NCBI RefSeq assembly: GCF_964355755.1
Contig: NC_092678.1
Coordinates: 14,348,371 to 14,412,370, forward strand
Origin: Antedon mediterranea
Taxonomy: Eukaryota; Animalia; Echinodermata
Reading direction: 5' to 3'
DNA: 64,000 bases
The notes under the pieces: model-generated
What the model saw: only the letters and a program-made list of their open reading frames with translations
What the model was told of the DNA's origin: nothing
Database searches by the model: none
Made by a program: the position numbers and the translations under genes
Shown here: piece after piece, positions 1 to 27,600 of the stretch
Numbering within the stretch: the first letter of the stretch is position 1
How the letters are laid out: every line of letters begins with the position of its first letter

Positions 1-677
1 CACTGAATTGTGTATGGTATAATTGAATTTAATGTATGATAATGAAAAATTAGTGGCTTAATTTAAAAAAAATTACGCATAGGCCTATATTACAGATTCT
101 TATTATTGATATCATTATGGACATAATCCTGAGTTGTGGAAATTAGGATATTTTATACGAATATATATTAGGCCTACTGATATACTGTAAATAAGACCTC
201 TTTAGTCCTACTTCACACGTTTACGTAGATCTATCTGATAAGAATTTGTTAATTATTTTATTTTTATCGGCACGTTGATTTCTACCTACCATGTAAACGC
301 ATGCAGCAAGTCAGATTTTCCTCCACAATGAATCTTCCGAGAAAGATCTTTTATTTATTTTCGATGCGCTTCCATTCAATTTTAAAATCGCTTTGATTCC
401 TGCCGCCTCAATCCATCAAGAGGAATGGCGGGGGATATTTGAACTCTGTGGTATATCTGGCTTAGGCCTAACCCTTTTGCGATTAATTCTTTCTAATAGT
501 TCTGTTGTAGGCTACATTTTCTTCCACGGGCTCGTCGTTTATATTATCAAGTAGACGGTCATTGATGACCGAGTCTACGCATTTATCTCGTATAAAATCG
601 CGTAGAGTTATCAAATTTAAATTGTGTTTATTTGTATCAATTATGTATGTTTGTTGCTGCTGTACATTGTCTACAAG

Positions 678-698
678 ATGTCCACCAGCCAAAAACAG
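678..698 (+). CDS. Candidate first coding exon (MSTSQKQ)
   Basis: acaagATG (A at -3), 7 codons, then cag|gtaaat. The phase-0 donor is compatible with the phase-0 ankyrin exons. Short, so it could be chance. Confidence 0.4.
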
Positions 699-3600
699 GT
701 AAATAAAACATGAAACACTAATATGCTTTCGTGATACATTTATAGCACTGTTCGGAAGTACTCATGATTGACTATCAATCCATTTTGTTCCCAAAAATGT
801 GAAAGATATATACTTTCCCATTAAATTTAATAAATTGAATATCACACGGCCATCCCAATTCCCTAACAAAACTATTGTTCATGTTTAAAAGTATTTATTT
901 AATGTGTCTGTAGTTCTAGTTAAATTGCTTTGCATAAAGCAGCATTGAGAAATATTTAGATTATTATTATAAACAACCACTAAAGTATTTATTCCTGTAC
1001 AAGGTCAGAAATCAAATTTCCCGCAAACTATTTTATAAAATCAGTGACCTATCTAATAGTAAATTGATTGGTTAATACCCAGTCAGTGAGGACCTGATTG
1101 ACAAGCAGTGCCTGTTTGCTATTGGTCATTGGTAAGAGGAAGTTGAAAATGGACAGCAAGTTATTCTTAACACTTGCAGTCTTAAATAAACACGCTGGCA
1201 TTTTTATTACACCACAGAGTATTATTCCTGTCAACTTATACCACAATTGACATGTTGAGGGGATAGGTCATCCACTGATTCAGTGGATGCCAAACGTAAC
1301 GCTAAAGTAGCCTGGTCCGTGTAATGCAGATAGACAAATAGAGTGAGTTGCTGAGTGGTTAAGACAGTGGAACCGTAGCCATAACGTAAGGGTTCGAGGC
1401 TCACTCGCTCCATAGTTCTGGTGGTAGAGAATTGAGTCTTCTGGGATAAGGACGATAAACCGTAGGTCCAGTGTACACATCTAGCTCATGTGCATTTTAA
1501 AGGAAGTAGTGCATATTATTTTTATAAGAGTAGGTGGTTACCCCGTTGTACTACATTCCTAAGCAGCCACAAACTAACTAACGAGGACCCTTCCTTCAAT
1601 AGAACTGGATAGGCCACCCTCATTAATTATGGTGATAAATAAAAATAAATAAAATCCGAACAAAAGAGATGGTAAATGTTATATTTACCATCTAAGATAC
1701 CAACAGAAAAGTTTAGGTTTAGTTCTACGAATTGATCATATATTTTATCAATAGATATCCATGCATGCATAAAAGTAGTTGAAGATGTATTGTCCCCCTG
1801 ACAAATAATTGTTTTACATTCATTCATTTGTTGAATATGTAATTTTAATGTCATGTAATAGTTATTAACTTTGACCAGAATTTGGATCAAAACAAAAAAT
1901 ATTTACCTAAGAAAACTGTAATGTAAAGCAGAACATTGTAAACTTGTCTGCCAGACAATGAATAAAAGTGAAATCATTATTTTCTTTGGTTTTTTTTCTT
2001 ATGTAATAGTTTTATTAAAACTGCAAACTCATCTATTCATAGTCTGAATTTATAGCTCTTTAATTTTCATGATTTTGGGGGCAATACATCTTTAATTAAT
2101 AATATTAATTATTATTATATGGTAGCCAATCACCAAAAATGGTTGTTGCCCATAACGGCCATACATCATTGTACAACCTTGAATCTTTCAACCACCCGAT
2201 TCCTTCCACTGGAATATCTAGCTGTGTGTCAGACAATTTTAATTTAATATGAAACTGCTGTTCTAATTAAATTTGGTATCATATGTTACTTTTACTGTTG
2301 TTATCAATTATTAAAAAGTAGCTGTTTGGTCTGGATGTAATGTGGTTTTCTCACACTATAAGCAGCAAATTTTATCTGATGTTTTTGATATTATGATGAT
2401 ATATTTTCTGTTTTAAATATCGCTAACAATCTAGCTGAAACCACTTTTCAATTATTAGTTGTATCATCATCCTCACCATCTCCCTTTCTAATACATCTCT
2501 TATCACCATTGTTGATCATCTTTTGAACCACTTTCCGATTTGCTGGAACCATTTTAATCAACTGAGCCAATGTAAGATGCAATGCCTCGCGAGCTTATGA
2601 ATACGTTGTAATAAGCCAGCTTTACTCCAATTCTGGTTTTGTAGTTGTTCAAAAGTCTCCTATATTTGGCAAACTCGTCCGCAAATTCAGTTCAACATTA
2701 CCGGTTCCCATTTCCATATAAATGCATGTTTTCAGTTGTTTATTACACAACAGTATTTCATTTCATTATTTTTTCTGTCTATTTCAATATATACATAACA
2801 AATGGTCAACCTAAGTGAACTTAATCACTGTAGCGAAGCCGGTTGACCCAACTCTAAAGTTATTTATAAGACTCATTATATATATCTACAACAGACTGGT
2901 TACGACAAGCAAATACAGCTGGACACCTCTAGCGTTCGTGGTATGGAGATCAAATATCTTAATGGGAAACGAAATAATATACAAATATATTTGTTGAATT
3001 ATCCGCATCGTTTGTTTAATTAAATTGTTTATTGTATGGATAATACGTGTGATTTATACTGCACTTGGGAGAAAGTTGTCTTACGTATGTTTTCATTAGT
3101 ATGTAATAATATATCTTCATAAAGGCGGTTTACGATATAGCAACTACACGGAGAGGTATCTTTCATCGTGTTTAGTTCAAGTGTATAGTTAGGTTGACGT
3201 TCAGAACTATAAGTGTGACAGAAAGCATTGTTTACGTTAACCTGTATAGCATAAACTACACGATTATGATTTCTTTTATGATTCTGTAAAATTACAAAAT
3301 AAGAGACAATTGATATAATTCGGACTACGTTCACAGGATATGGACAAGAAAAACGTTTTATTTACATTTCTTAGTGTGTAATTGTTTATCATTATCTAAC
3401 TATAATTATTTGCTGCAATACACTGTATATATAAACCACATGATTATAATTTCTCTACAGAACGGAAACACCCCGCTGCATGAATACATGCGTTCAAATG
3501 GACCTAAATTAGAAGTAGTAAACTATCTCACGAAGCAAGGTGCATTAGTAGCAGCACTAAATAAGGTAATTATGTCTAGAAATAATTTATATGATTACAC

Positions 3601-6600
3601 CTATAACGTACTTATGATCTGAGCCGCAAACCTATCGTATCCACTTTATTTTATATCATATTACAATTGATTGAGTTAGCCTATTTAGAATTACTTGCTG
3701 CAATACTTATTTAGTAGTAATTAAACAAGATCCTACTATTATTGTTAGATTGATATTTTTTGCAATGAAATTATTAATTGAACTATGTTTTATGTAGACA
3801 TAGTATTATATTGTTGAATTTAGAATCATGACAGAAAGCAATGTTGACATAAATCTGTATGTATAAACTACACGATTATGATTTATTTTATCAGTAACAT
3901 TGCAAAATAAGGGAATGCACAGATAATATTGATATAATTCATTCTACGTTCACAGCAAAACCTTTTATTTCAATTTCTTTGAGTAATATTTATCATTACC
4001 TAACTATAATCATTTGCTGCAATACACTGTATATGTATAAACTTCATGATTATAATTTCTCTACAGAACGGAAACACTCCATTGCATGAATACATGCGTT
4101 CAAATAAACCTACCTTAGAAGTATTAGACTATCTCACGAAGCAAGGTGCATCCGTAACAGCACTAAATAAGGTAATATGGGCTAGAGATAATGTATATGA
4201 TTACACCTATAACGTACGTATGATCTACACCACAAATATATTTTTGCATCATTTTTAGTCGCGTGGACGCAACTCTATGCCGGTCGGTCGGTCGGTCTGT
4301 CTGTCTGTCTGTCTGTCCGGTATCACTATGCGTTTTATCGCTTTTCTGTACTTTTTGAACTGTTTTGATGTAAAGAAAAGATTTAACGTATATTACTTTT
4401 TGAAAGTTCATTTTTTTCTGAGAGCACGCGACTTATGGCTGTTGGCCTTGTTTACCTTTAAACGTAGGAAGGTATTGTACTGTATGTTAATTATTATTAA
4501 TTCTCTTGGTATAAATAATACATTTTAGCGACTTTCGATTTAATTTGATTTAAGAATATTTATTTTTTTTGAATATATATGCTCTACATACACATCTAAT
4601 TGGTAGATATGTTGAACCTACGTTAGGAATAGTGACTTATCTCATTAATTTAATTTGTTATTGTATAATATGATTATATATATAATATTGTATATATATT
4701 ACCTATGAGGTAATAGGGATAGATATAATTTATATACTAGATAAAAAAAATAAGATGGAAATAACACAGATCGAATAAAATATATTGACTTTACTTATTG
4801 TTAGATATCATCTTTTTAAAGGACAATCACCTCTCTTTAGCGACCACTACCCCTTTAATTAAATTAGTGACCACCACTTTTAATGAACCACCACCTCTTG
4901 TAAGCGTCCATCTCTTTTAAAGGATCACCACACGTAAGAAAGGTGGTTGCTTATGATATATGTGTTACATAATAGTTTAAAGGACATTGGAAACCATAAT
5001 CAATTCAAATATACACTTAATAAACACATCTTCTGCATTGCAACTTATGATTTAATTAGGATTTGCTTGTTAATTAAGATTGTTGGTGTATGTTGTTTTT
5101 TTTTATATCGGGAGTCCTTATGGAAACAAGCTCTAGAGCTTATATAGTTGTCATCTTGCTCTCATCCTGTCATTTTATTATATGTATTTGTAATACAGTA
5201 TTGATGAATGAGCAACAAATATTAAACAAACAAACGTTCTGCCATTCCTTATAATTGTATGAGTAAAAAGTATGAGTATTCCTGTATCTGAAGTGTTTGT
5301 GAACACAATATGTCTTATAATATTCATATTGCATCAGCCACAAAACAACAACAATCAATCAAGGTATCAGTTGTGTCTAACAATAAGAATAAGAATCCTT
5401 ATATTTGATGTTTTATGATTTATTCACAGAATGGATACACACCGATAGATATTTATCTGGAGCGTGATGAGGTTAAATTAGAGATATTGTACTGTCTGAT
5501 AACCAATGGAGAATCACCAACATTACCAAAAGAGGTAATTTGACAACAATTTTAAATTGCAATAGTATGGCATACTGGTAATAGTACAGTATGCTTAATG
5601 ATAATTATTATGTTTTGCTTTGTTTTTTACCTTGAAACTTAAGAAGGTATTGTACTATATTATGTTAATTATTATTAACATGATGGAACTTCTCTTGGTA
5701 TAAATAATACATTTTAGCGACTTTCGATTAATTTGATTTAAAAATATCTATTTATTAAAAATATAATATTTTAAATTTTTTTTAGGATGGAAGCAATGCT
5801 CTACATATACATCTAAGTGGTAGATATGTTAAACCTACGTTAGGAATAGTGACTAATCTCATTAAACTTGGTGTATCTCAAACATTACAGAATAAGGTAA
5901 AGTACATAAGAGTGGTTATTATATTCCCGTGATCTAACATTGTGTAATTATCGTGTGGGACACAAACACACCTCAGATCACGAGTGTGGTGTTGTTCATA
6001 ACTCTATACCTGCACAAGAGTGGTTACAGCAAGCAAATACAGTTGGACACCACTAACGTTCGTGGTACCGAGATTAAATCTCTAAATAGGAAAAGAAAAT
6101 ATATATTTTTGTAATTATCCGCATCCTTTGTTTAATTTAATTTGTTATTGTATAAAATAAGTACGTGTGATTTGTAATGAACTTGAGAGAAAAGTCTTCA
6201 ATATTATGTAATAATATATCTTCATATCACATAGCATGAGGTAATATGGATAGAGATAATTTATATGCTAGGTAAAAAAAAATAAATAAGATGGAAATAA
6301 CACAGATCAATTAAAATATATTGACTTTACTTCTTGATAGATATCATCTTTGTAAAGGACCATCACCTCTCTTAATGGGCCACTACCCTTTAATTAATTT
6401 AGTGACCACCACTTTTAAAGAACCCCAACCTCTCTTGTAAGCGTCCATTACATTTAAAGGATCACCACACGTAAGAATGGTGGTTGCTTACGATATATGT
6501 GTCACATAATAGTTTAAAGGACATTAGAAACCATAATCAATTCAAATATACACTTAAACACATCTTCTGCATTGCAACTTATGATTTAATTAGGATTTGC

Positions 6601-9600
6601 TTGTTAATTATAGATTGTTGGTGTATGTTGTTTTTTTATGTCGGGAGTCCTTATGGAAACAAGCTCTAGAGCTTATAGAGTTATCATCTTGCTCTCATCC
6701 TGTCATTTTATTATATGTATTTGTAATACTGTATTTATGAATGAGCAACAAATATAAAACAAACAAACGTTCTGCCATTCCTTATAATTGTATGAGTAAA
6801 AAAGCATGAGTATTCCTGTATCTGAAGTGTTTGTAAACACAATATTTCTTATAATATTCATATTGCATCAGCCACAAACAACAACAATCAATTATGTTAT
6901 CAGTTGTGTCTAACAATAAGAATAAGAATCCTTATATTTTATGTTTATGATTTATTCACAGAATGGATACACACCGATAAATATTTATCTGGAGCGTGAT
7001 GATGTTAAATTAGAGATATTGTACTGTCTGATAACCAATGGTGAATCACCAGCATTACCAAAAGAGGTAATTTGACAAAAATGTTAAATTGCAATAGTAT
7101 GGCATACTGGTAATAGTACAGTATGCTTAATGATAATTATTATGTTTTGCTTTGTTTTTTACCTTGAAACTTAAGAAGGTATTGTACTATATGTTAGTTA
7201 TTATTAACATGATGCAACTTCTCTTGGTATAAATAATACATTTTAGCGACTTTAAAAATATTTATTTATTAAAAATATAACATTTTTTTTATTTTTTTAG
7301 GAAGGAAGCAATGCTCTACATATACATCTAAGTGGTAGATATGTTAAACCTACGTTAGAAATAGTAACTAATCTCATTAAACTTGGTGTATCTCCAACAT
7401 TACAGAATAAGGTAAAGTACATAAGAGTAAGCATATATTCACGTGATCTAACATTGTGTAATTATGGGATGGGACTCAAACACACCTCAGATCACGAGTA
7501 TGGTGTTGTTCATAACTCAGCTCTATACCTGAACAAGTGTGGTTACAGCAATCAAATACAGTTGGACACCACTAACGTTCGTGGTACCGAAATTAAATCT
7601 CTAAATAGGAAATGAAAATATATATTTTTTTTAATTATCCGCATCCTTTGTTTAATTTAAATTGTTATTGTATAAAATAAGTACGTGTGATTTATAATGA
7701 ACTTGAGAGAAAAGTGCCTTACGTACGTCTTCAATATTATGTAATAATAATATATCTTCATATCACATAGCATGAGGTAATAGGGATAGAGATAATTTAT
7801 ATACTAGATAAAAAAATAAATAAGATGGAAATAACACAGATCAATTAAAATATATATTAATTAATTTAGTGACCACCACTTTTAAAGAACTACCACCTAT
7901 TGTAAGCGTCCATCTCTTTTAAAGGATCACCACACGTATGAAAGGTGGTTGCTTACGATATATATTATGTGACACATATTGTGTCACATAATAGTTTAAA
8001 GGACATTGGAAACCATAATCAATTCAAGTATACACTTAAACATATCTTCTGCATTGCAACTTATGATTTAATTAGGATTTGCTTGTTAATTAAGATTGTT
8101 GGTGTATGTTGTTTTTTTATGTCGGGAGTCCTTATGGAAACAAGCTCTACAGCTTATAGAGTTATCATCTTGCTCTCATCCTGTCATTTTATTATATGTA
8201 TTTGTAATACAGTATTGATGAATGAGCAACAGATATAAAACAAACAAACGTTTTGCCATTCCTTATAATTGTATAAGTAAAAAGTATGAGTGTTCCTGTA
8301 TCTGAAGTGTTTTGTAAACACAAAATGTCTTATAATATTCATATTGCATCAGCCGCAAAACAACAACAGTCAATTATGTTATCAGTTGTGTCTAACAATA
8401 AGAATAAGAATCATTATATTTGATGTTTTATGATTTATTCACAGTATGGATACACACCGATAAATATTTATCTGGAGCGTGATGATGTTAAATTAGAGAT
8501 ATTGTACTGTCTGATAACCAATGGTGAATCACCAGCATTACCAAAAGAGGTAATTTGACAACAATTTTAAATTGCAATAGTATGGCATACTGGTAATAGT
8601 ATGCTTAAAATAATGATAATTATTATTTTTGCTTCGTTTTTTTACCTTCAAACTTAAGAAGGTATTGTACTATATGTTAATTATTAAAAACATGAGGCAA
8701 CTTCTCTTGGTATAAATAATACATTTTAGCGACTTTCGATTAATTTGATTTAAAAATATTTATTTATTAAAAATATAACATTTTTTTTTTTTTAGGAAGG
8801 AAGCAATGCTCTACATATACATCTAAGTGGTAGATATGTTAAACCTACGTTAGGAATAGTGACTAATCTCATTAAACTTGGTGTATCTCCAACATTACAG
8901 AATAAGGTAAAGTACATAAGAGTGGGCATATATTCCCGTGATCTAACATTATGTAATTATCAGGTGGCACTCAAACACACCTCAGATCACGAATGTGATG
9001 TTGTTCATAACTCTATACCTGCACAAGAGTGGTTACAGCAACCAAATACAGTTGGACAACACTAGCGTTCGTGGTACCGAGATTAAATCTATAAATAGGA
9101 AATGAAAATATATAAATTTGTAATTATCCGCATCCTTTGCTTAATTTAATTTTGTATTTTATAAAAAAAGTACGTATGATTTATAATGAACTTGAGAGAA
9201 AAGTGGCCTACGTAAGTAAAGTCGAAACATAAGCTAATGCTAATGGCCTTGGTACCCATCTCCATTTCCTTAGCGTTTGGGCCAGGCTCCACTAAGTGTG
9301 TATGTGTGCGTGGGTACGGACGCCACTCCTCCCGCACACACGAGTCTGATTTACCTTCCCAGTACTTTTAACATACCGGTACCAATTTCTATCACCTGGG
9401 TGGGGAGGAACAATGTGGATAGAGAATCTTGCTCAAGGACTCAACACCGCAGTGGCCGGGCCGGGCTTGAACCGGCAACCTCTTGATTGCAAGTCCAATG
9501 CTCTAACCACTGCGCCACACAGTGCTCCACTAAGTGCTGCCTTACATACGTCTTCATTATTATGTAATATTACATCTTCATATCACATAGCATAAGGTAA

Positions 9601-12600
9601 TAGGGATAGAGATAATTTATTGATTGAATTATCAATTTAACTATGTTTTATGTGGACATGTCATTATAAAAATTATGGTTGAATTTAGAATGATGACTGG
9701 AAGCAATGTTCACATTAATCTTAATGTATAAACTACACAATTATGATTTCTTTTGTCAGTAAATTTGCAAAATTAGTGAATCCACAGACAATTGATATAA
9801 TTAGGTCTACGTTCAGAGTATACGCACCAGCAAAACCTTTTATTTTAATTTAGTTGTGTATCATTTATCATTGCATAACTAAAGTGATTTTCTGCAATAA
9901 CCTGTATGTATAATGTCTTTATTGGATGGAAACACCCCGCTGCATGAATACATGCGTTCAAATAAATCTACCTTAGAAGTAGTAAACTATCTCAGGAAAC
10001 AAGGTGCTTACAGCACTAAATAAGGCAATATAGGGTTACAGATAAGTTATTATAATCACACCTATAACGTACGTATGATCTGCACCGCAACAATATCTTA
10101 TCCACATATTTTATATCATGTTACAATTGATTAAGTTATTTAGAATTACTTGCTGCAATAGTTATTTAGTAGATACTAAACGAGATATTACAGTTATTGT
10201 GAGATTGGTATATTGACTATATTTTATGTGGACATGTCATTATAAAAGAGCTGAATTTAGAATCATGACACAAAGCAATGTTTACGTTAACTATTAATTA
10301 TGATTTCTGTTATGATTCTGTAAAATTACAATATAAGAAACAATTGATATAATTCGGTCTACGTTCACAGGATATGCACTAGAAAAACGTTTTATTTCAA
10401 TTTCTTTTTGTATTTTGTTTATCATTATCTAACTATAAATATTTGCCACAATACACTGTTTGTATAAACTTCATGATTATAATTTCTTGAAAGGACGGAA
10501 ACACTCCGCTGCACGAATGCATGCGTTCAAATGAACCTATCTTAGAAGTAGTAGACTATCTCACGAAGCAAGGTGCATCCGTAACAGCACTAAATAAGGT
10601 AAAATATGGCTACAGATAAGTTATATGATTACACCTAACGTCGGTGAAATTATGTTTATTTATCTATTTTTTACCTTATTTAACAATGTAATGTTTTGGT
10701 GTAATGTCACTTCCAACAATGGCATCAAAATAATCAATAAGGATACGAATGAAATTAGGACTGGAAGAACACGCCGCGGAATGTTCAAACGTTTCTATTC
10801 CAGTACGAATACTACTTTCAATTACAACCTAACTATCTCATATTGCATCTTGCATAACACTCAACATCTCCTTACCACAATACTAATTTTCGAATAGATT
10901 CCAATATATTGATGGTGTGTGCTACTGATATTTTGTACGCTTAATAATAAACTTCTTCATAATAATTGTTTTCTCTATAGGACAGAAACACCCCGCTGCA
11001 TGGATACATGCGTTCAAATAAACCTACCTTAGAAGTAGTAAACTATCTCACAATGAAGGGTGCATCAATAACAGCACTAAATAAGGTAATATAAGTTTAA
11101 AAATAATTTATATGATTACACCTATAACGTACGTATGATCTGCGCCGCAACAATATCTTATCCACTTATTTCATATCATATTACAATTGATTGAGTTATT
11201 TAGAATTACTTGCTGCAATAATTATTTAGTAGAAATTAAAGAAGATCCTACAGTTATTGTGAGATTGGTATATTGACTATGTTTTATGTGGACATATCAT
11301 TATAAAAGAGCTGAATTTAGAATCATGACAGAAAGCAGTGTTCACATTAATCTGTATGTATAAACTACATGATTATGATTTCTTTTATGATTCTGTAAAA
11401 TTAATATAAGAGACAATTGATAATTCGGTCTACGTTCACAGGATATGCACAAGAAAATTTTTTTATTTAAATTTCTTTGTGTGTATTGTTTATCATTTTC
11501 TAACTATAATTATTTGCTGCAATACACTGTTTGTATAAACTTCATGATTATAATTTCTTGAAAGGACGGAAACACCCCGCTGCATGAATACATGCGTTCA
11601 AATAAACCTAGCTTAGACGTAGTAGACTATCTCACGAAGCAAGGTGCATCCGTAACAGCACTAAATAAGGTAATATATGGCTACAGATAAGTTATACGAT
11701 TACACCTAACGTCGGCGAAATTATGTTTATGTATCTATTTTTAACCAAATTTAAAAATGTAATGTTTTGGTGTGATGTCACTTACAACAATGGCATCAAA
11801 ATAATCAATAAGGATACGAATGAATTATGACCGGAAGAACACGCCGCGGAATGTTCAAACGTTTCTATTCCAGTACGATTACTACAGTCAATATTACAAC
11901 CTAACTATCTCATATTGCATCTTCCATAACACTCAACATCTCCTTACCACAATACTAATTTTCGAATAGATTCCAATATATTCATGGTATGTGCTACTGT
12001 TATTTTTTACGTTTAATAATAAACTTCGTCATAATAATTTTTTTCTCTATAGGACGGAAACACCCCGCTGCATGAATACATGCGTTCAAATAAACCTACC
12101 TTAGAAGTAGTAAACTATCTCAAGAAACAAGGTGCTTCAATAACAGCACAAAATAAGGTGATATAAGTCTAGAAATAATGTTTATGATTACACCTATAAC
12201 GTACGTATGATCTGCACCGCAAAAATATTTTATCCACTTTATTTCATATCATATTACAATTGATTGAGATATTTGGAATTACTTGCTGCAATAATATTAT
12301 TATTTAGTAGTAATTAAACAAGATCCTACAGTTATTGTGAGATTGGTATATTGACTAAGTTTTATGTGGTCATGTCATTATAAAACAGCTGAATTTAGAA
12401 TCATGACAGAAAGCAGTGTTCACATTAATCTGTATGTATAAACTACATGATTATGATTTCTTTTATGATTCTGTAAAATTACAATATAAGAGACAATTGA
12501 TATAATTCGGTCTACGTTCACAGGATATGCACAAGAAAAACGTTTTATTTAAATGTCTTTGTGTGTATTGTTTATCATTATCTAACTATAATAATTTGCT

Positions 12601-15600
12601 GCAATACACTGTTTGTATAAACTTCATGATTATAATTTCTTGAAAGGACGAAAACACCCTGCTGCATGAACTCATGCGTTCAAATGAACCAACCTTAAAA
12701 GTAGTAAACTATCTCAGGAAACAAGGTGCATCCGTAACAGCACTAAACAAGGTAATAATGGGCTAAAGATCATTGCAAAATAAGGGAATGCGCAGATAAT
12801 ATTGATATAATTCGGTCTACGTTCACATCATATTCACAAGCAAAACCTTTTATTTCAACTTCTTTGTGTATTATCTATCATTACCTAATTATAATTATTT
12901 GCTGCAATACACTGTATGTATAAACTTCGTGATAACATTTTTTTCTCTATAGGACGGAAACACCCCGCTGCATGAATACATGCGTTCAAATAAACCTACC
13001 TTAGAAATAGTATACTGTCTCACGAAGAAAGGCGCATCCATAACAGCACTTAATAAGGTAATATAGGTCTAGAAATAATTTATATGATTTCAACTAACGT
13101 ACGTATGATCTGCACCGCAACATATCATCTTATCCACTTGATTAAATATCATATTAAAATTGATTGAGCTATTTAGAATTACTTGCTGCAATAATTATTT
13201 AGTAGTAATTAAACAAGATCCTACTCCTATTGTGAGATTGGTATATATTGAGCAATGAAATTGATAATTTTTTTAATAGTTTTATGTGGACATGTCATTA
13301 TAAATGTTTTGAATTTAGAATAATGACAAAAAGCAATGTTGACATTATCCTAAACTATTATGATGTGTATTATTTATCATAATCTAACTATAACTATTTG
13401 CAACAATAACCTGTATGTATAGACTCCATGATCATAATTTCTTTATAGGACTGAAACACCACACAGCATGAATAATTAGTCATTTGAATGATAGTTGTTT
13501 TGTTTCTTCAACAACATATAATCCAAATTCTAGCAAATTGACTACGTCACCCATGCGCCATGCATGTACACAATACTAGTACAAAAATGCCTTTCATTAA
13601 ATGTTACTTTAAACTTAATTGCAAATACAGTTAACATTAATTATAAATACTATAACTTTATTACGTGAATTATTTCCCTTTGAAGATACGTATTTTATTA
13701 TTGCCTGAGTTATTACCACATTGAGGGCACAGTTATTTTGTATGGAAGGCTGCACTCAATTTTAAGTTTTTCTGGAGATATTTAGCTTTTAAAACGTATT
13801 CACTCATTGTTTACTATGTTTAAATTTTACAAGTATATAGTGTACGGTAATGATAGTTAATTATTATCGGGCTTACGCGGAGCTACACATTGGAAGGATG
13901 GGAGATGTCCTGTCAGTGGTCATTCAATATTACATTTACGGCGAAATTATGTTCCTTTATTTGGTTTTGACCCCATTGAAAAATGTAATGTTTTGGTGTG
14001 ATGCAACTTACAACAATATCATCCAAATAATCAAAAAGGACACGAATGAATTATGAAGGGAAGAACAGGTCGAGGAATTTTCCAACGTTTCTATTCTTGT
14101 ACGAATACTACTTTTAATTACAACTATCTCATAATTATTATTGCATCTTGCATTACGCTCAACATCTCCTTACCACAATACTAATTTTCGTATAGATTCC
14201 AATAATATTCATGGTATGTGGTACTGATATTTTTTACGTTTAATAATCCTTTTATAATACGGCCACATGAACATACACACTCCTGTGGTGAATTTCCGTA
14301 TCTCCCTTTATGTCATTTAAATCGGAATAGTCATGAAGAAAGTAATGTATTGTGTATATGGCTGTAAATATACATGATTTGCAGTATTGTAATAAATACC
14401 AATGGATACGAAATTGCTTGTTAGTTAGTGTAAATAAGAACCGTCCTTCATTATAGATATCTGTAAGTACAAGGTGTTTAGAAGTATACTAACTAGAATG
14501 TTTTACATATGTATATTTGTTGTTTTTAATTTATTTAAGTTTACCACAATTTTTAGTTTGTGATTTCCTTTTGATGAATACATTAAAATCAATATTTGAA
14601 TTTCAGAACGGGGTTTACAATTACTATGAAACTGTGTACTTTGTATTGCGGCACGGTATTTTCTTAGAAGCTCTATGCTTAATTTAGAATTGACTTAGGA
14701 TGTGTCTACAAAAATATTCATTTTGATTTGCTTGTTGTTTGCACTCACTTACTACAATTTGGGTTTTATATCTCTGATTCCATAGACATATTGTTCCTTT
14801 GATTTCTAAATTGGTTTATAATATTTCTACTATTAGCAATACTTAAAACACTGTTATGTTTATAGGAAGGAAAAACAGCAGTATCTGTTTTAGAAGAAAA
14901 TACGGAGATAGAACAAACAGAAAAAATCAAGATTGTAGAGCATTTTGACAGTAAGCTATTATATTAAAGTTTTTAACATGAAAACGACAATGTTAGCAAC
15001 AAATATTTGAATTCTGAAACAAATGTTATTCATAATGTTTACATAAAACCATGAATTTGAATATATGTATGTTATGCGTATTTTTTATATTTTAATATTA
15101 GAATTATTGGTTCCTCCTGAAATATTTGCCAGGGGTAAACAGGCTATAAAAATATATAAAAATGAACTTAAAGATGGTAAAATTGCAGTTGTGAATTCGA
15201 GATGTATGTTTCTTGGAAAGGAAGGTGCTGGTAAGACTAGCTGTGTAAAGGCCATGCTTAAAGAAAGGTAACTAATTGCAAATTATTTACGTATACATCA
15301 TACATTTTAGTATTGAAAAAATTATCAGTGTATTTTTAATTATATATTTGATGTAGATACTAATACTATTTTAATCATTTTACCTCACCATACGTTGTTA
15401 AAATAGATTCAATCCCGAAGAACCATCGACAGACGGTATCGTTACACGGACAGTGTTTCAATCAAATAGTAAGAGTGAATGGAAGAGGATTAAAGATAAA
15501 CACGACGGTAAGATGTGTGTAACTACCTGTAGAGTAGAAAATAGAAAAAAAAAAAGGTTTTTTTTCGAGTTTCTGCCGTCATGTGATGCCAAGCGAAATG

Positions 15601-18600
15601 TTGGATTAATATATGTGATTGTAGTACAGACAAGTAAAGTTTTTTTACACTCTTACTCTAGAGTTGTGGCTTACTTAATTTTGTAGACCTATCTTAGAGA
15701 AATTACCAACAATGTACCAGGAATAGGCACGATATGTAATGTTTAACATAATTGATTGCACATTGATACAGACTAAATGAAATTCCGTGTTTCTCATAAA
15801 CTCCAACCAGCATAATTATTTGTATACATATTGTTTTCACCAATTGCTATTTTTGTACAGATGCCGAGCTAACCAGGAAAATGCGTGAACATGTAATAAA
15901 ACAAAGGATTGATAAGGAGTTAGGTATGTAATACCGCAACACAAATTATAATATAAAGCTTTTTAACAATTGAAATAAATCATTTATCCTTCATATTTTT
16001 TAAACGGAACTATTATACAAATAATGAATGTTTATTAGTGTAATGATACAATAGGCCCTAATGGCATGAGGTGAATGATGAAAGGTTATATATCAACGAG
16101 GCAACGCCGAGTTAATATTTAACTTTTCATAATTCAACAAATGCCATTATTTGTACCATTACACGAATATAACATTCATTATTTGTTTTATATAACATCA
16201 AAACAGATTCCTGTCATTTGAATCAAATAAAAGGTAGCCCTCTAGCCAAGGCCTACATTTCATTCACATTGATTAAAACAGTAACATTTGGTTTTTAATA
16301 ATAATATATTAAATGTTATATTTATATGGATTTTATAAACTCACGTACTTTAGTGTTAATTATGTCCACAAACGACCAAACAATCCTAATACTAACAGGC
16401 CTAGGCCTAGGCTAGACACTAGTACTAGCTTGACGCTGATTACATTATAATGTACTATTATGTAAAAATGAAATGCAATGTTGACAGTACATGGCCAGAC
16501 AATACTGACTCTCATATGTTGTTGTTGTTTGGTATTTTAGGTATAAGTTAAAAACGTAAAGGTAGGCGTCTGGATCGTTTAAAATTTGTACTTGGTCAAA
16601 ATGGTCGATATTTGGCAATCTATAAATAGTTTTATTTAATTTTATTTTATTTTCTAATAGAGGACAACCAAAGCCACCCAATTGGAGGTGATTCTGTGAA
16701 CATTCCAAATGAAATAACTAGCATATGGGACTACGCTGGTCAATTAGACTACTACATAACGCACAGGGTATGCCTATCAATATGTTCGTTTATTAGCAGA
16801 ATATGATCTGATAATCACATAGATATATTAATGTAGTAGTAGTGATAGTGATAGTAATGGTGGTGGTTGTACTGGAAGTGGCAGTGATAATGGTAGTAGT
16901 AGTAGTAGTGGTAGTGGTATTGGTATGTAGGGTCTATATTGCATTTTAATAATCTGAAAACAATTATATTCTAATAATATTTTTGTCGATATACAGTATA
17001 TTGTTTTCCTTCACTTGTTAAACAAGCGAAGATGGCTTTATCTCAATAGAGTTGCCCAGACATCTATCTCATATTACATTAAGATTACAATTAAGAGTAG
17101 TCTTTTTAGTATAATTATCATGGCTTGCACCATGTTCTTGACACGCACGTGTATATTAATGTGTAATATGTCTTTAAAACATTGTTTAATAATAGTATTA
17201 TATACTACGAAGAACTTGCAGTCCAGATTCTTATATACGCATATACGGTGTTAAACTGTAATTATTTTCCTCCTTATATTCTTTAAAAAGAAATATAATA
17301 TGTAGCGTTCTGATTTAACATTAGTATCGACATACTCGCTTCAATGTGCAGTATTCCCGCTACAATTATCATGTATTCCTATTTTCCGATCCTTATGTCT
17401 TGAGCTATATCCATTAGCACACCCCGGTCCTTAAAACCCAAAGGAATTTTTTTATTTATTTTTTTCTTATTTGAATTATTTTTTCTTGACATCAATTTTT
17501 ATTTTTCAATTTGAATTGTTTTTTATTGTTATACTTTTGTTTTTTGCATTGTACTATCATGTCTCAAATTCCGACCGATTATCAAGTTTATTGTTTTCCC
17601 CATCTTCAATCAACCCAGATAACTTTACCTCCAATATTGACCCTGATTCACAATTGTTTTCAAATAGCAACATGAGCACCTCCCAATATTACGATCCTAA
17701 TGAATTTTCTGTTATTATCACAAGTGAATGTTTCTCTACTATCCATTTTAATTCAAGGAGCATTTTAAAACATTTTGATGAGACATGAAACAGCTTTTAA
17801 CATTACTAGATTTACCATTCGATGTAATTGGCGTAAGCGAAACATGGCTTAAGTACGATAATCCCTTGGTTCAACTCCCCAACTACCACTTTGTCTCCAA
17901 TCACCGAACTCATAAAGACGGCGGTGGGGTTGCCATGTATATTCGTGATGGTCTTTAATTTTCTACAAGACATGATCTTCATTTCTATTTGCGAATACAT
18001 TTTTATTGAGATTAATAGACCTCACTCTAAAAACATTGTCATTGGTACAGTAGATCACCATCCCTTGACCCTCTTCAATTTACGAACGAACTTGAATCTG
18101 TCTTATCAAATTTATCAAGAGAAAACAAAATTTCAATTCAATATTGATATCCTCAAATATGAATCAGATAACGATGCCCAATACTTTGTTAATTCCTTAT
18201 TTAACAATCACTACCTTCTTCGCATTTACAGACCATCTCGTCTTACCAAAACTACAGCTACCCTGTTAGACAATATCATAAGCAATCAAATTGACTTTCC
18301 AAACATGAGTGGATTGGACTGTATTTTACAGTGACATCTCTGACCATCTCCCAGTGTTTAATATTTCATTTTTGTCCAATGTTACTACTAGCTCAAACAG
18401 GGAAGATAAATCAGCTTTTAGGAAAATTAACCCCTCTACATTAGAACACTTCCGTCAAGAAGTGGCTACTCAACAGTGGACCAATGTATTTTACAAGCAG
18501 GACCCCGATATAGCATACAATTACTTTGAAAACACACTAAAGTCCCTATACGACAAAAACTTCCCCCTCCAGTACAATACTAAAAAAGACAAAAAAATAA

Positions 18601-21600
18601 AATCATGGATGTCTGACGGCTTGCTGAAATCTATAAAATATAAGCAGAAATTATATGCCAAATTTCTTCACCGTCCGACTCCCATAAATGAAAAAGCTTA
18701 TAAACTATACCGCAATAAATTGAATTCTGTAATCAAAATTCCTAAAGCTAATTACTTCCAAAATATATTTCACAAACATAAAAATGATATCAAGGCAACT
18801 TGGAAGACAATTAATTCTCTGATTAACAAAAACAACAGCAACAATCCAATACTCCCTTTATCTGCGATGGGGAATTGACCGAAGATCAGGAAAAAATGTC
18901 TAATGCGTTTAATAAATACTTTGTCGAAATTGGCCCCACCCTTGCAAACCAAATTCTCCGTGTTACCAAATCATTCAAATAATTCTTACCAAATCCAAAT
19001 CCAAATTCAATATTTCATAACCCAGTTGATGAGTCTGAAATAGTCAAAATAATAACCTCTTTTGAAAAAAAATAAATCTCCAGGTATTGATGACTTTCAT
19101 ACCAAGGCCATTAAATACATTGCTGACCTGATTTCCCTTCCCCTGTGTCATATTTTTAATCTTGCTTTATCCAGTGGTGTGTTCCCAGAGAGGATGAAGC
19201 TAGCGCGCGTTACCCCTATATACAAATCTGGTCCTAAATCTGATCTCTAATTATCGACCCATCTCCATTTTATCCATTTTTTCAAAAGCCATGGAAAGAG
19301 TAATTTATGACCGAATATGTTCATTTATTACCAAATTCAACTTACTTTTCAACAGACAATACGGTTTCAGAAAGGGACACAACACGTCAATGGCTCTCAT
19401 CGACCTGACAAATAAAATTATAGACGCTTTCGAAAACCGCCATCTTACAATCGGCATTTTCATAGACCTTTCCAAGGCTTTTGATACTATTGACCACAGT
19501 ATTCTTCTACACAAATTATCTCACTATGGAATCCGTGGATCAGCAATTAATCTCTTAAATAGTTACCTCTCCAATCGTGCCCAATGTACCAAATACTCTC
19601 ACTCCATATCCACTTTTAGTCCTATCACATGCGGCGTCCCTCAAGGATCTCTACTTGGCCCCCTCTTATTTATTCTATACATCAATGATATTCACTTCTC
19701 TTCAAAGCTCCTAAATGTTTTCATTTATGCTGACGATACTACAGTACTTTATTCTAACAAAAATGTCCAATCATTATTTAATACTGTAAACTCCAATTTG
19801 ATCAATTTGTCTCAATATTTTGCAGCTAATAAACTTTCTCTTAATCATAAAAAATGTAGCTTCATCCTTTTTGGGACCCCACAACTATTAAAATCTATTG
19901 ACTTATCAGCCAACAAAATTACCATTGACAACCAGGATACACCTTGTGTACAATCAGCTAAGTTTTTAGGTGTAGTTATGTACAGCAATCTAACGTGGAA
20001 AAATCATATTAAAGAAGTAGAGAATAAGACTTCCAAAAGCGTTGGTATCATATCTAGGTTATCCTCATTTGTACACCTTAATATTCTTCGAACCCTCTAC
20101 TGCTCCCTCATTCTTCCCTATTTGAGCTACTGTAACATTGTCTGGGCCAATACTTACGTGTCCAACCTCAGTAAACTGCAAATTATTCAAAAGAAGGCTA
20201 TTAGGATTATATCTGGCGCTCCACCGCGGTCCCATTCTTCCCATTTATTTTCCAAACTTAATCTCCTCAAACTCATTGATATAAATTTAATGCAACAAGG
20301 CAAATTTGTATTCTCTGCCCTGCATTCTACTTCTCCAAATCATTTAAACAATATGTTTATTCCAAATTTTTCGATTCACAATTACCCTACACGTTCTAGA
20401 ACTGACTTACACATACCTATCCACAACACCAATTATTTTCAAAACAGTATTAGATACTCCGATCCATCAATGATGAACAATTTACCACCCCCAATTACAA
20501 ATGCTGTTTCAATTTCTTTATTTTCCATTAAATTAAAACAACACCTAATGTCAAACTATTAAAAAGACAACGATCGAATGTCGCAATTTGATTTATGCTG
20601 CTGAACATTGATCAACTGTGGTTTTTGAGTTTTATTTTCTGATTCTACAATTTGATTGATCTATTTCTTTAGATTTATTTATTTATTTATTTTATTATTT
20701 TTTTTGTCTTGTTTGTTTATCTTAATTTCCACTCTTATTTATTTTTTTTTTTCCATTTTATTTGCATAGGCATACCCAGCACAAGATTTCCTCATCTTCT
20801 CGGGATTATGCCTTCCTCCATAGCCAATTTTCTTTAATTCACTTTTCTTTTGTATATCCAACAATCATCTTTTTCATTTTTAATATACCTTACCATTTCT
20901 ATTTATTATTTTGTATTGTATTGCTATGGAGGAAAATAAATGTCTTTTAAAATGAAAATTATTGCATCAATGTAGGCTTACTACATGTCACTAATTATAA
21001 TAAAAGACTCTCTCCCGATAGAATATGGATAACTATTCATCATAATAACCACCTTGTATCTGTATTTTGTTCAGTTTTTCCTAACAAATACAGCATCGTA
21101 CTGTGTTGCATTTAATGCTTTGGATAACTTGGATGAACCAGCTAATGCACGAGATCCAGCAAATGTAAGTTCAACATTATTTTAAACTTCAATTATTAAT
21201 ATTATTATATACTAATATAGATTATTACATTATATTTTTTTATTTGTATTTTAGGGTCTACTAGGAATGACTAATTTAGACATGAATTTGTTCTGGATAA
21301 GGTCAGTATACGAGCATACTGTGGCGCAACATGCTTCAGGAAAACCCATTTCAATTGATGGCAGGGTTTCTATAGAATCACCTCCCATCAGTTTGGTTGC
21401 TACTCATATGGACAAATTGCCATCATGGAGAAAATCGAGAAATCGGAAAAAGGTAATTCATTCTTGTGTTAATGAACTGAACAATCTAACATGGTATGAA
21501 ACTGAACACCAATAATGCTAATTTAGCTTATTAATTGATCATCATCCAATTTCATTCTTGTATCAATAGATGCTGTCATAATATTAAAAAATAAAACAAA

Positions 21601-24600
21601 GCAGATTGCAGAAGGTGTAGTAAAGTCAAGTAACACAAATATTGTACACTAAATACAAAATAACCGTATTACTACCAATAAACATAAATAAACCAAATAC
21701 AGAAAAAATTGATTGTAACTTATTTGTGTACATAAGAATCCTCTATATACAAAATTGAGTTTGAAATAATATATACCGGTATTGTATTTAATAAATGGAA
21801 ACTTATGAAAGTCATACATCAAATAACTACTTTATAATAATGATAAATAATATCACAACAAAAGGACGACGTTAGATGCATTAGGAAAGATTATACATAT
21901 CCTAGTCCTCCCTGCAGATAAAGGAAGACCAACAGTAAGTGTAACGTTAGTGTCAACATTATACAATTCCATCCGAATTGCATTAACACACTCCTTAGTC
22001 ATTATTTTCAATCTATATCCACCGGCTGTGTACCCATTTGTATTCCTTCATAAATGGATTTGATATTCCAGTTGATTAGCAATTCGGGTGTGTCATAATA
22101 ATCAACAACCCAAAACATTTCTTCCATAGACAAAAATTAATATTACTCCATTGGAGTTTTTTTAGAACTTAACAAGGCATTTGATTACATCAACCTTAAT
22201 ACCATTGTTAACAACTGAAATATTATGGTTTTCGTGGTATTTATTAGCATTGTGGGCCTAATGGTTTTCAAGTTATCTACCTAAGATACAACAATTATTG
22301 GAAATCATTCTTCCGATAAAATTTATTTATCAAGGGTTCATTTTAGGGCCTCTTTGTTGGTTTTTATTATACGTAAATGACCTATGTAAACTATATAATA
22401 ATAAATACATTTGCTGGTGATACCCGTATCTTCTGTAGTCATACGAATAACAAAAATGATGCATTTCAAATAATGAATGACAACTTGCTTTGATACTTTC
22501 AAGAAGTTTTACATCTAATGAACTTACATTTAATCCAAAGAAATCAAAATGTATACTGCTTAGTTCAAGAAATAAAACCCAGAAACCTACAGAAATTAAA
22601 GATATATTGTCCCCCTAAACAATTTGTGTTTTTTTTAAATTTTAATTCCACATAATAGTTATTAACTTTGACCCAAAAATGGGATAGGAAAAACAATTAT
22701 TTTTCCAAAAAAGCCGTGATTTAAAACAAAGTCAAATTGACTGGAAGTCAATGGGTTTTGGCTGAATTTAAGCATTTATCTTTTTCAATCCATAATAATT
22801 CAATTACATCAATTGTATCACAGGTTGTTTGGGTATTATTAGTGACAAGTATACCTTGCTAACTTAAGTTGTATTATTTGTACATCTTTAATTTTATCTC
22901 ATTTACACTATGCTATTTAATGCTGGGGTAAATCTGGATCTGTATTATTAATTTTTTTAATTATTTTATTTTATTTATTTATTTTAATTTTAAAACAAGA
23001 AACAACAGCAGAAACAAATCCGCCACTTACAGCTTGGTTTAACAGATACAATACAATTACCCAGAAACACTTAAATTACGACGAAACAGATTGGAATTAA
23101 AAATGTCAATATGGGGATGAGCCTGAACTAAACTAACAAAAGATAGCTTGAAGGAAGGATTGTGTTAAGTTTCCTTATTATTACTCATATTCTACTTTTT
23201 TCCTTACAAATATTTTGACTCTGTTTAAGGAAACGACATTTTTTTTATTACGGCATTCAAACAATCTCTCTTTCGTACACTTATTAAAAAGGTTTCCAAT
23301 TTATATGTGTTAACCAAAGCCCGTTCCCTTTTCCACAATATGTCATATTTGTAATGCAAGTAAGTTTTGCAAGTTAGTCAGAGCACAGATGTTAGAGAAT
23401 TTAATTCAAAATACTGGCACGTGCATGTATTCACGTCGATTATGGTAAATGCAAATGACATAAGAATGGTATAATTCCACTGAAACAGCCTTACACATTG
23501 ATTCAGATAAATAAATCAATGTTTAAATAAATGTTCAAAATAAAAAAGAAATATGGAAGATGTCTACATTCCAATTTTTATAAACTTATAACTGTAACGA
23601 TGCTAATACTTTTTAAATTGAAGGTTGAGGGTATGTTTAACGAAATGTTTGATAAAATGGAAGGAATGAAATATGCTGCGCATGTAGATCGTGAAATGTA
23701 CATGGTTGACAACACTGTGAAATCACATGCAGATATAAAGAAACTTAAGAGAAATATTGGTAAATACATGCAGGCAATGGGAATGAAGGAAGTTCCAATA
23801 AACTGGCTTAACTTTCAGGAAAGATTGCAAGACATTGGAAAAACAAAAGTGTGCATTCCTTATAATGAGGTAAAGTAGTGTTTGTGCTCTAAAAATATAT
23901 AATAAAAGTGCATTATATAAAACGATTTTACACTTCTGAATTGCGGTATATACATCGAGGCTCTAGCTACGTATCGTATCAGTGTAATTTAATTGTATGT
24001 GCAGTCATTCAAAATTATATGAATCAACAAATGAAATGGAAACTGAAATAAACCATGAAATTTCACTTAAAACAACAGTTTTGATAAAAACGTTGTTATA
24101 TGATTTAGAAGAAAGCAATGGATTTGACTGCATAAAACAGTTTTATCTAAACCATATTAGGCAATAACATTGCGATTCTCATAATTGACTTTTTTCGATG
24201 TTAAAGGTCACCGAATAAAGGCCGAACTACACAAAAATTCTATATTAAAAATAAACAAATAAAATAGTTCTGATTCAGGTTGATTCTGTCCCTAAATTTG
24301 ACATAACTATTTCGAGCAAAGCTTTACGTTACTACTGTAGCAAATGTATCTCTGACAATCCATGACATTGCATAATATCAAGCGATTTAAATCGTGTTAT
24401 GCTTGCCGTTTTAAAATAAATGTATAATAGATTGGCGCGGTTACGCTTTAAAGTACCGCAATCGCACGAACCTGACACAAAGAAGGACTCGAAAGTGCCT
24501 GCAGAGGAAAATGGGATGATACCACATATGATCATAATCATTCATGTGTGTATTAAGCTACAGTTAACGGGATTCAATATGAAATAAACAACTTTGTAAT

Positions 24601-27600
24601 CTCTATTCGGTTGGTTTATTACCAACATCGAACTAGCGTGCGATGTATATTTTTACATGAATTACGTGTACATAATGTAGGTGATGATGAAAACGTACAC
24701 AAAGAACTTCTGGTGAATACTTCCATGGCCAACATTATTAATTAATATCGTTTACAAACGACAACGAGATGGTACAAATATGGCCATCACAAGCTTGGAA
24801 CAAGGAACGTTTTTGTTTAGTAGCGAAATTGTACTTAATAAGACAGATGGAAATGTGCCGGGAACATTATCCCAGCTAGAAATTAGATTTCTGCATCGTT
24901 CTAAACAAAGAAAAGCGCACAAGCTTTTAGTAGAAAAAGAGTACCAGAAGGACGTCTGTATGTTGCACCAAAAGACGTTAAGTAAAAGTTATATTGTAAT
25001 AATATGTTCTGAAGTTTGCAATATTTTTATCAGCTGGCAGCTGCAGCAGCTCTAAAAAAATCCACAGCCAAAACATCTGCCTCATAAGAAGCAATATAAT
25101 AAATTAAACAGATGAAAATAACTTTTAAAAACTATAATGCCATATAATTTTGTTTAGAATTGTAATAAAAAAACATATTTTCATCCATGTTTCGGTATTA
25201 CAATTAATATCAATGCCAAACAATTAGAAAACAGTATTATAATGACACATCACTGTACATTAACAGGATGGTTTCATTGAGCTCGGTGATTCTTTAAATC
25301 CCGTTTACAGTATGTACATCTGTTATGCGCATAATCCTAAATATTAACGTCATATATGGTATCAGTATTGTGAACTTGCAAATCGAGAAGCCCTAATTAT
25401 AATGAAGTTACAAATAAAATAGGCAAATAATAGCTAAATCAAAACGATAAAATAAAGTAAAACAACCAGAAAGAAATTGTGAAGTACAAGTGAGAGTAGT
25501 TGGAGAGAAGTAATATACAGTAAGTTTAAGCATATGTATATATGTATAAAGGTTAACAGAGTAAAAATCAGAAAGTAACAAAAAAAGTAGAAAACGGAAA
25601 TTTAATGTATGAAAATGAAATGTGAACGAAATATGTATGAAATATTGAATGAATAAAGGTGGTGGTTAACCACAAAAGAGAAACAAACCAGTTTAAGCAT
25701 GAGCTACCTGAGTGGATGCAATCGTTGTGCCATAATAGTAAAATATTTATTACCAACGGTTTAACTTGAGCTTTCTTATTTTTCTGTACCATATTTATAA
25801 ACGTTAATTTTAAATCGAAGCATATTAGAACCTGTAATAAGGTAGTAGAGTATACATTTATAACTATCATTGTATAGGTTATTGGTAATTAACAAAATGA
25901 TATAGCCTATTATTCATATTTACTAATTTTAATTCTGTATTATAGGCTTCTAGAATTGGCACTGAATGTGGAATTTCTGAAGAAGCGATCATCCTTGCCA
26001 TAACGTATATGAATGACATTGGAAAGATTATGTATTCCAATAAAGACGAGAAATTAAAGAACACAGTAATAACTAATCTTCACACGATGATTCAGATGTT
26101 AACAACTGTGATCACAGTATTCCCACCAACTATCAAAGATGTATGTTAGAAAATTATATTAATACTAGAAATGCGATCAGATTAATTATGAACACAGGCC
26201 TACAGATATCCTCAAAAAAATATTTTAAGCGGCGGATCCAACCTACTTAAAGATAGAGGGGCAGTTGTTTGATCCACTGGAAAAGAGAGTAATTTTGACA
26301 ATTAATTTGTTATGGTAAAATTTTACAAACTAGATGGCACGCTCGCTTCGCTCGCGTACCATCTAGGTCGTGCCCACAGATGGTTCTCGAATACACAGTA
26401 TTTCCAGCGAGAAAAAAATGGAGATTTCAAATGTACGTACCGCAGGACTATAATACATTGTCGTTTACAGAAACGAATAAATATACACAATGATTTATGT
26501 AGTCAACCAAAATTAGCACCCTGAGAATTACTTCCGAGAGAGAAACAAAATGAGTCAAATTTTTTTATTTGGACTCATTTAAACAAACCCAATTTGTGTT
26601 TTGTATGTAACATTAAGGGTTGAGGGATGGGGGAAGAAGATAGGTACAAAGAGGAAACATTTTAAAATATATTCTTATCCACTCAGTAACGAAATATTGT
26701 TTTTAATGTTTTATAGGCCTATAAATAATATACCACTAAATACAGTAAAACATTTACGATTTAATACGGTACTTTGTTAAAACTCTCACTGTCATAGTCG
26801 ATTGAAATAGTAAAGTACATGTAACGATACACCACTACGACGTTTATATATTTTTAAATTATTAATTAATACAAACGTTGAGAAGCAACTGTCAGTAATA
26901 ACGTTTATTTATTTGTATATTATATATTTATAATCTAACAGTAGGGCCTACCCACACTCACAGTAATAACGTTTATTTGTATATATTTTCATATTACATC
27001 TAACAGTACCAACACTCACAGTAAGAAATTTGCGATTCAAATTGCGATCAAAAGTGGTTAATACCTTAACAGTATTGTACAGCATTGCAATACTATTTAT
27101 GTTTATTCTCCAAGGGGGCCCATAAATCTAAATCTATACCTGTATGGTTAAACCAAATAATTTGGAATGTTCCATTCATCACAAATCAATACATTTGTAA
27201 AAACGTATATTAAATGTATCAAAATAGTATTTTTTAAAGAAAATCGGCCTGTCTTCAACATTATGATGCTGTACTCGAACTGTTCAACCGGTTTTCAGCT
27301 ATTAAAAACAATTATCGTAGGAGGAGATAGGAAAATGCGAAGCCTCCTCGCATTTTTGTGGCGGGTATTTTTCAAGATGGACATCCATTAGACAGTGTAT
27401 ACCACGATCGGAAAACACCCCTATTTGGGGCAAATCGTTGAACCTAAATTCGTTTTAATCGTCAATAACTAATTATCTAACTTAATTTAATTAGTAAACA
27501 GGGTTACATCAGGTGGTTAAAATCAGTACCGAAAGTACGAACCAACTTTATATACCATCGAGTAAAAATTCTAGAAGTAAGGAGCGATTTACCGAATTTT

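Follow-up and report, generated by a model that had tools for sequence, protein, structure and literature searches.

An array of short, closely similar ankyrin-repeat exons, or cassettes, lies near the start of the window, by which is meant the whole 64,000-nucleotide (64-kb) stretch of Antedon mediterranea DNA analysed here (contig NC_092678.1, positions 14,348,371 to 14,412,370). Judged by its sequence, the array opens an ANK-Roc-COR gene of the ROCO family that likely ends in death effector domains (DEDs). Fourteen cassettes have an AG acceptor, a GT donor, an open frame and phase 0-0 borders in seeded searches and splice-site checks. They follow the order A A (C B)x3 and then six A, giving eight A, three C and three B exons, and the first-pass annotation, which had claimed 14 intact exons of three types with these places, sizes, order and phase, is fully confirmed in this. 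A six-frame profile search of the window recovered all 14 and two of the dead cassettes described below, and neither the seeded nor the profile searches gave a credible inverted or minus-strand copy in the 64 kb. The intact cassettes (lengths in nucleotides, nt) and what supports them are as follows.

3461..3565, + strand: A1, ankyrin cassette exon, 105 nt, phase 0-0 (splice sites, frame, Pfam Ank)
4067..4171, + strand: A2, ankyrin cassette exon, 105 nt (splice sites, frame, Pfam Ank)
5430..5534, + strand: C1, degenerate ankyrin-like cassette exon, 105 nt (splice sites, frame; C-to-B joint)
5786..5896, + strand: B1, ankyrin cassette exon, 111 nt (splice sites, frame; fold of homologous repeat)
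6962..7066, + strand: C2, cassette exon, 105 nt (splice sites, frame; weak ankyrin-2 match)
7301..7411, + strand: B2, cassette exon, 111 nt (protein identical to the B repeat of P0037, a relative)
8445..8549, + strand: C3, cassette exon, 105 nt (splice sites, frame, joints)
8796..8906, + strand: B3, cassette exon, 111 nt (splice sites, frame, joints)
10494..10598, + strand: A3, ankyrin cassette exon, 105 nt (splice sites, Pfam Ank)
10981..11085, + strand: A4, ankyrin cassette exon, 105 nt (splice sites, frame)
11565..11669, + strand: A5, ankyrin cassette exon, 105 nt (splice sites, frame)
12053..12157, + strand: A6, ankyrin cassette exon, 105 nt (splice sites, Pfam Ank)
12647..12751, + strand: A7, ankyrin cassette exon, 105 nt, TPLH changed to TLLH (splice sites, sequence)
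12953..13057, + strand: A8, ankyrin cassette exon, 105 nt, hybrid acceptor region (splice sites, Pfam Ank)

Each exon had also been described as exactly one repeat. This holds for the A exons, by Pfam, and for the B exons, by the fold of a relative, so that 11 exons contain a clear ankyrin repeat; the three C exons are degenerate, and C is likely one ankyrin repeat on the strength of a weak match. Nine array exons were scanned: all five A exons passed Pfam Ank (E 5e-7 to 3e-5), and there was no match for the two C and two B exons. The stretch that was folded is a homologous one and not the window's own array, namely the C, B, seven A and cap repeats of P0037 (XP_071961256.1) of the same species, modelled by AlphaFold with a mean predicted local distance difference test score (pLDDT) of 87. 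The B and A repeats and the cap are modelled there as helix-turn-helix repeats, and Foldseek returned ankyrins and designed ankyrin repeat proteins (DARPins) for this model. The C exon has a weak sequence match to ankyrin-2 (E 1.2e-4) and no TPLH motif; in the P0037 model it sits at the N-terminal position with low confidence (pLDDT 38-47).

Downstream of the array, 13 core exons complete the gene model, and the 27 exons splice in frame into 1,168 codons without a stop.

14866..14950, + strand: C-terminal cap repeat exon, phase 0 to 1, joining the array to Roc (joints, fold of homologue)
15102..21452, + strand: Roc GTPase exons (G motifs, splice joints)
15102-15267, + strand: Roc G1, GKEGAGKT (sequence motif)
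15407-15507, + strand: Roc G2 region, STDG (sequence motif)
16661-16767, + strand: Roc G3, WDYAGQ (sequence motif)
21255-21452, + strand: Roc G4-like, THMDK (sequence motif)
23624..29277, + strand: end of Roc and COR, seven exons, open frame (frame, Pfam, homologues)
30468..34246, + strand: short linker exons, five of six phase 1-1, some duplicated (frame, self-comparison)
31662..32213, + strand: first likely tandem death-fold (DED-like) exon, 552 nt, phase 1-1 (Pfam DED, E 0.01)
34555..35054, + strand: terminal exon, likely tandem DED, with stop codon (Pfam DED, E 5e-6, two stretches)

Roc is directly followed by COR, the arrangement that defines a ROCO gene, as seen from the G motifs and from Pfam Roc and COR-A matches in the near-identical P0037; COR-B gives a weak Pfam match on one window exon. 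GTP binding, hydrolysis and dimerisation are predicted from motifs only. The linker between COR and the DEDs is built from duplicated phase 1-1 exons (147, 147, 48, 57 and 30 nt), and one linker exon (31374-31465) is without a phase-1 donor and is probably skipped. Since these linkers and the first DED-like exon are all phase 1-1, the effector end may be modular too. When the terminal DED exon was searched by sequence against the PDB, a single match came up, weak and unrelated. No kinase domain was found in the gene model, whose 5' end is unlocated, nor in the Pfam lists of the crinoid homologues. The largest Roc intron contains a retroelement resembling a long interspersed nuclear element (LINE) at 17600-20560 on the forward strand, with broken endonuclease and reverse-transcriptase pieces recognised by eye.

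Three of the 17 cassettes in total are dead, which the first-pass annotation overlooked, and the array is built of duplicated blocks.

~4579..4648, + strand: dead B-type cassette, no AG acceptor, truncated (seeded and profile searches)
9925..10024, + strand: dead A-type cassette, acceptor lost, 5-nt deletion, GC donor (seeded search)
13449..13475, + strand: dead A-type stump, only ~25 nt of match (seeded searches, not the profile search)
4679..9217, + strand: three tandem ~1.5-kb units (intron, C, intron, B, intron), 91-92% alike (self-alignment)
10494..12646, + strand: youngest duplication of the A tract, two ~1.07-kb copies, each with two exons and two intron types

The dead B cassette precedes the three C-B units. 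In the youngest duplication, A3-Y-A4-X gave A5-Y-A6-X, X and Y being two intron types that alternate along the A tract. The intron upstream of A8 is of one type and its last 30 nt are of the other, a hybrid acceptor that fits an exchange between unlike units. Also, the intron blocks found after B stand upstream of A1, and A1 and A2 therefore likely derive from a duplicated B-A-A segment. Together, the unit structure, the alternating intron types and the hybrid acceptor point to unequal exchange. Self-alignment gives 7556 of 8109 intron bases a partner at 75% identity or more, 6303 at 90% or more and none at 95% or more; the introns, once called near-identical, are 90-93% alike, and that wording was too strong. 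High-copy repeat insertions at 4245-4447 and 9218-9537, each in one array unit only, help to order the duplications. Contigs of the public runs X5 and X9 contain a 1,478-base step back inside the C-B units, and a 1,652-base skip occurs in X1; seen in short contigs, the step and the skip could be extra or rearranged units. Two other lines were set aside. An excess of exon over intron divergence (A5/A7, 12% vs 4-5%) was gone once the duplication was framed as A3-Y-A4-X vs A5-Y-A6-X, and a four-gamete count (10 of 21 pairs incompatible) has too few informative sites (seven) to be proof of recombination, with CpG homoplasy possible.

The gene belongs to a crinoid family. A COR-exon search gave 27 matches, all of them crinoid, with 16 in Antedon mediterranea (up to 93%) and 11 in Anneissia japonica. 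At least 23 A. mediterranea protein records, fragments and isoforms included, are of this family and are spread over contigs of four lengths, nine of them on one 26-Mb contig; these records, with paralogous 3' fragments in the window, mark a clustered, expanded family with birth and death. The fragments (61247-63209, forward strand) match linker exons and introns from the 3' part of the gene at 72-95%, have no Roc or ankyrin match nearby and are likely a partial paralogue. An insert of ~940 bp, whose inverted ends are ~165 bp long (61889-62052 and 62668-62826), splits one linker exon among them.

P0037 and related "uncharacterized" RefSeq models share the C, B and A types with the window gene, and their Roc to COR-A exons are 75-100% identical to it, most of them above 90%. 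They differ in layout: P0037 has C, B and seven A, with an identical two-repeat duplication of its own, and then cap, Roc, COR and DED with a COR-B and tail of a different subtype, while the window gene has A A (C B)x3, six A and two DED-like exons. Pfam finds Ank, Roc and COR-A (the last two above cut-off) and a weak DED in P0037; its first 177 residues have no Pfam match and look, by eye, like a retroelement fragment. Its P-loop exon is identical to that of the window gene (54/54), and from Roc to 27984 P0037 is the closest relative (e.g., this exon, and 79/81 and 48/50 in others). Beyond 27984, the closest are P0001 and P0002 and not P0037 (92/99 vs 81/99; 31/35 vs 18/35), a switch that suggests exchange between tandem paralogues, or chimeric models. 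Unit number differs between close copies as well: after a partial first A repeat, the P0028 model has three complete ones and the P0029 model has one. In P0003, another A. mediterranea protein, two near-identical ankyrin repeats are followed by a tandem pair of Roc-COR modules.

In a tree of 44 repeats from nine proteins (37 columns), repeats group by gene subfamily and type and not by position; the gene label needs 16 changes vs a shuffled mean of 26.6, and none of 200 shuffles is as low. P0003, P0011 (three of four repeats) and P0012/P0039 form starred clades of their own; the row P0007_r9, a cap segment, was kept in. In the Anneissia homologues with a full N-terminal region (P0017, P0042, P0045 and P0050), the ankyrin repeats are mutually divergent by eye, and therefore the expansion looks recent. 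The recent turnover proposed at first pass, introns included, is supported by the block units, the dead cassettes, the hybrid acceptor, the different array of a relative and the subfamily clustering of the repeats.

Splice joints come from contigs of public runs X8 and X10, which are of two studies and other individuals; none of the 11 public runs examined is recorded as RNA. The two runs gave 42 joints; among the 15 listed, nine are GT..AG, and all nine are on predicted exon borders. They join A1-like to C, C to B (two rows), A4-, A5- and A6-like to the cap, the cap to Roc, and Roc exons to each other (two). In one additional joint, whose short side is 35 letters, the end of an A exon meets an A start. 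In their best rows, the cap-to-Roc and Roc joints have a short side of 30-87 letters, and the array joints have 22-29, below the 31-letter threshold. The ends of A2, A3 and A5 are identical over 30 nt and the C or B starts differ by 0-2 nt, so the joints are not assignable to single array copies. This gene or close copies of it are spliced, not necessarily this allele. In two of the three cap joints, the A end is one with which paralogues naturally close their arrays (ITALNK in P0028; VTALNK in P0029 and P0037). None of the models examined reproduces the joint of A6-like to cap, found in both runs, or that of A1-like to C, found in X8, and these two give the strongest hints of exon skipping or of different alleles. 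There was no exon-exon joint among the 15 listed of 290 in contigs of X8, X1, X5 and X9. Upstream of the array, the sole candidate ATG exon (678-698) is unsupported; an X8 contig runs across it unspliced. At 400-1272, two long near-identical X8 contigs have a depth of 63-68 vs ~5-10 for neighbouring single-copy pieces, and this is possibly a transcribed untranslated region of this or a neighbouring gene. Over the Roc exon, contig depth when summed greatly exceeds the depth of single-copy pieces, a figure that does not amount to a copy number.

The explanation considered probable is that the array is the N-terminal ankyrin domain of an ANK-Roc-COR gene with likely DEDs, likely an intracellular immune-type sensor whose repeats change by unequal crossover. 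Germline unequal crossover between exon-plus-intron units would change the number and order of the repeats. Every cassette is phase 0-0, so the gain or loss of a unit, or the loss of a splice site, keeps the frame, and dead cassettes would simply be skipped in splicing. From what is known of these families, the ankyrin stack would bind a protein ligand, Roc-COR would act as a GTP-dependent switch and the DEDs would recruit death-fold adaptors or caspases. Germline change in number and order is well supported by the sequence comparisons; the immune role is one that we infer from the architecture. Diversity at the locus resides in the contrast among its three repeat types and in their copy number, and hypervariable codons play no part in it. 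The gene looks recently amplified, within a family that has hypervariable tips in other members. A more ambitious and rather doubtful proposal is a feather-star ankyrin receptor repertoire, in which an expanded ROCO family would combine germline-reshuffled cassettes with exon skipping to give many surfaces per gene, a GTPase switch and a death-effector output.

Several results weigh against a variable sensor or limit the explanation considered probable. The eight A exons have proportions of non-synonymous and synonymous differences (pN and pS) of 0.103 and 0.151, with a dN/dS of 0.66, and the counts of distinct variants, 28 non-synonymous and 14 synonymous, are compatible with neutrality (P 0.21), in a test to which eight short sequences lend low power. 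Residues N3, R11, S12, N13 and K35 are invariant (tips R-S-N). The positions that we take, from the DARPin register, to be the binding face differ less than the others (0.17 vs 0.23 pairwise difference), and no positively selected binding-face site was found in the window A exons. Of the "variable sensor" first proposed, the variation in repeat number and order stands; diversifying selection and a variable binding face within repeat types do not. P0037 behaves like the window (face 0.14, other positions 0.14), whereas in the eight repeats of P0007 the tip positions show 72% pairwise difference vs 20% in the framework, so that hypervariability is present in the family and absent from this subfamily. 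The youngest A duplicates have an exon divergence (16/210, 7.6%) that is not below that of their introns (45/860, ~5%; P 0.19). In favour of the explanation, matched duplicates have 26 indels in 2,076 intron bases vs none in 426 exon bases (expected 5.3, P 0.005), in a test that is biased because exons with indels are classed as dead and hence excluded by definition. The ankyrin consensus is broken in A4 and A7, the bootstraps of the 37-column tree are unsettled, and the skip-like joints are not separable from paralogues or alleles. At the effector end, both DED calls fall below the Pfam curated cut-off (a DED score of 27 bits vs 35.9), and the model of the first DED-like exon has a pLDDT of 58, with death-fold matches (Z 4-5) among unrelated matches of equal Z. 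Also, no start or N-cap exon was found in window positions 1-3460, and therefore the window may lack the 5' end of the gene, or the gene may be decaying.

One could consider the turnover as neutral, an unlikely explanation. Repeated introns would promote slippage, symmetric exons would tolerate it, repeat number would have little functional effect and the gene would perhaps be becoming a pseudogene. The near-neutral A exons and their invariant tips agree with this, as do the three dead cassettes, the lack of a start exon upstream and the several A. mediterranea models that are fragments. On the other hand, the frame and the GTPase motifs are intact over 27 exons, spliced joints occur in two runs, the exons have no indels, and the tips of P0007 suggest selection on binding somewhere in the family. 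The array could also feed combinatorial splicing, in which subsets of cassettes are skipped to give many isoforms and a somatic repertoire atop the germline turnover; this is possible to a similarly limited degree. It would be favoured by the symmetry of all cassettes, by the joint of an A1-like end with C, in which A2 would be left out, and by the three different A ends joined to the cap. The A6-like to cap joint is present in both runs, and its ITAQNK repeat is never last in three A. mediterranea models (second-last in P0037). Such splice variants exist in brown-algal ROCO genes (PMC11378527). However, the array joints fall under the 31-letter bar and between near-alike exon ends, two of the three cap joints reproduce the last repeats of P0028, P0029 and P0037, neither run is of this individual or recorded as RNA, and as many as nine consecutive repeats are included in RefSeq models. 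Dscam-like mutually exclusive splicing was rejected, since the cassettes join one another consecutively. An assembly artefact, with the array falsely expanded or two haplotypes joined end to end, is highly improbable: no run contig spans the whole array, but the units differ by 4-10% substitutions along with indels and unique insertions, they come in threes, and the same C-B-A order is present in an independent assembly.

Elsewhere in the window, two adjacent open frames on the minus strand, of 1,147 and 262 codons (47367-50807 and 51615-52400), probably belong to a large DNA transposon or similar mobile element. A tandem array at 40618-41031 has 26 copies of a 16-bp unit with 96% matches, and further broken LINE-like fragments lie at 56378-57900 (forward) and 58926-60221 (minus).

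With germline-changing repeats in a likely immune-type sensor as the preferred explanation, the gene can be set beside known systems. DAPK1 carries ankyrin repeats. The DAPK1 group of ROCO proteins is like the window gene in being metazoan, in having no leucine-rich repeats (LRRs) and in placing a death-fold domain after Roc-COR (PMC6337361). The window gene differs from it in the absence of a kinase from the model and from the Pfam domains of the crinoid homologues, in being DED-like instead of carrying a death domain, and in belonging to an expanded lineage-specific family, where DAPK1 is a conserved single gene. The brown-algal LRR-ROCO genes are nearer. The parallel with Ectocarpus ROCO genes drawn at first pass is closer than claimed, because the window gene is itself a ROCO gene, and it is an animal ankyrin variant of the brown-algal cassette-ROCO design. 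In brown algae, symmetric one-LRR exons are shuffled and an immune role is proposed (Zambounis et al., PMC3341825; Teng et al., PMC11378527). Both have a Roc-COR core, one repeat per symmetric exon (14 of 14 phase 0-0 here), some dead exons within the array, clustered genes that vary in repeat number and a proposed immune role. The window gene has ankyrin exons of 105 or 111 nt in phase 0-0, and the brown algae have 72-nt LRR exons in phase 2. Likely C-terminal DEDs are found only in the former and intact repeat exons on the opposite strand only in the latter, where positively selected binding-face sites and alternative splicing of repeat exons are also described; the window locus has no such sites.

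Fungal NLRs whose repeats have high internal conservation, such as HNWD and NACHT-ANK, offer another comparison (PMC13449251). They share with the window gene near-identical sensor repeats, probably unequal crossover, and an NTPase switch with a cell-death effector (likely DEDs here). In the window gene, a Roc GTPase takes the place of the STAND (NACHT or NB-ARC) ATPase, each repeat is a separate exon duplicated with its introns, unlike in the fungal genes, and hypervariable sites are absent from this copy. No paper on animal ankyrin-cassette ROCO genes or on crinoid ROCO expansions was found in a mainly open-access literature, and the supplements of ROCO surveys might list ANK-ROCO genes.

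The locus extends the cassette-built ROCO receptor design from the LRRs of brown algae to a deuterostome with ankyrin repeats and a likely cell-death output. This suggests a convergence, outside NLRs, on the layout of repeat sensor, NTPase switch and death effector. It also adds spliced joints at predicted borders and a family member in which the number and order of repeats change and no codons are hypervariable, thereby separating two routes of diversification, one through the number and order of repeats and the other through hypervariable codons.

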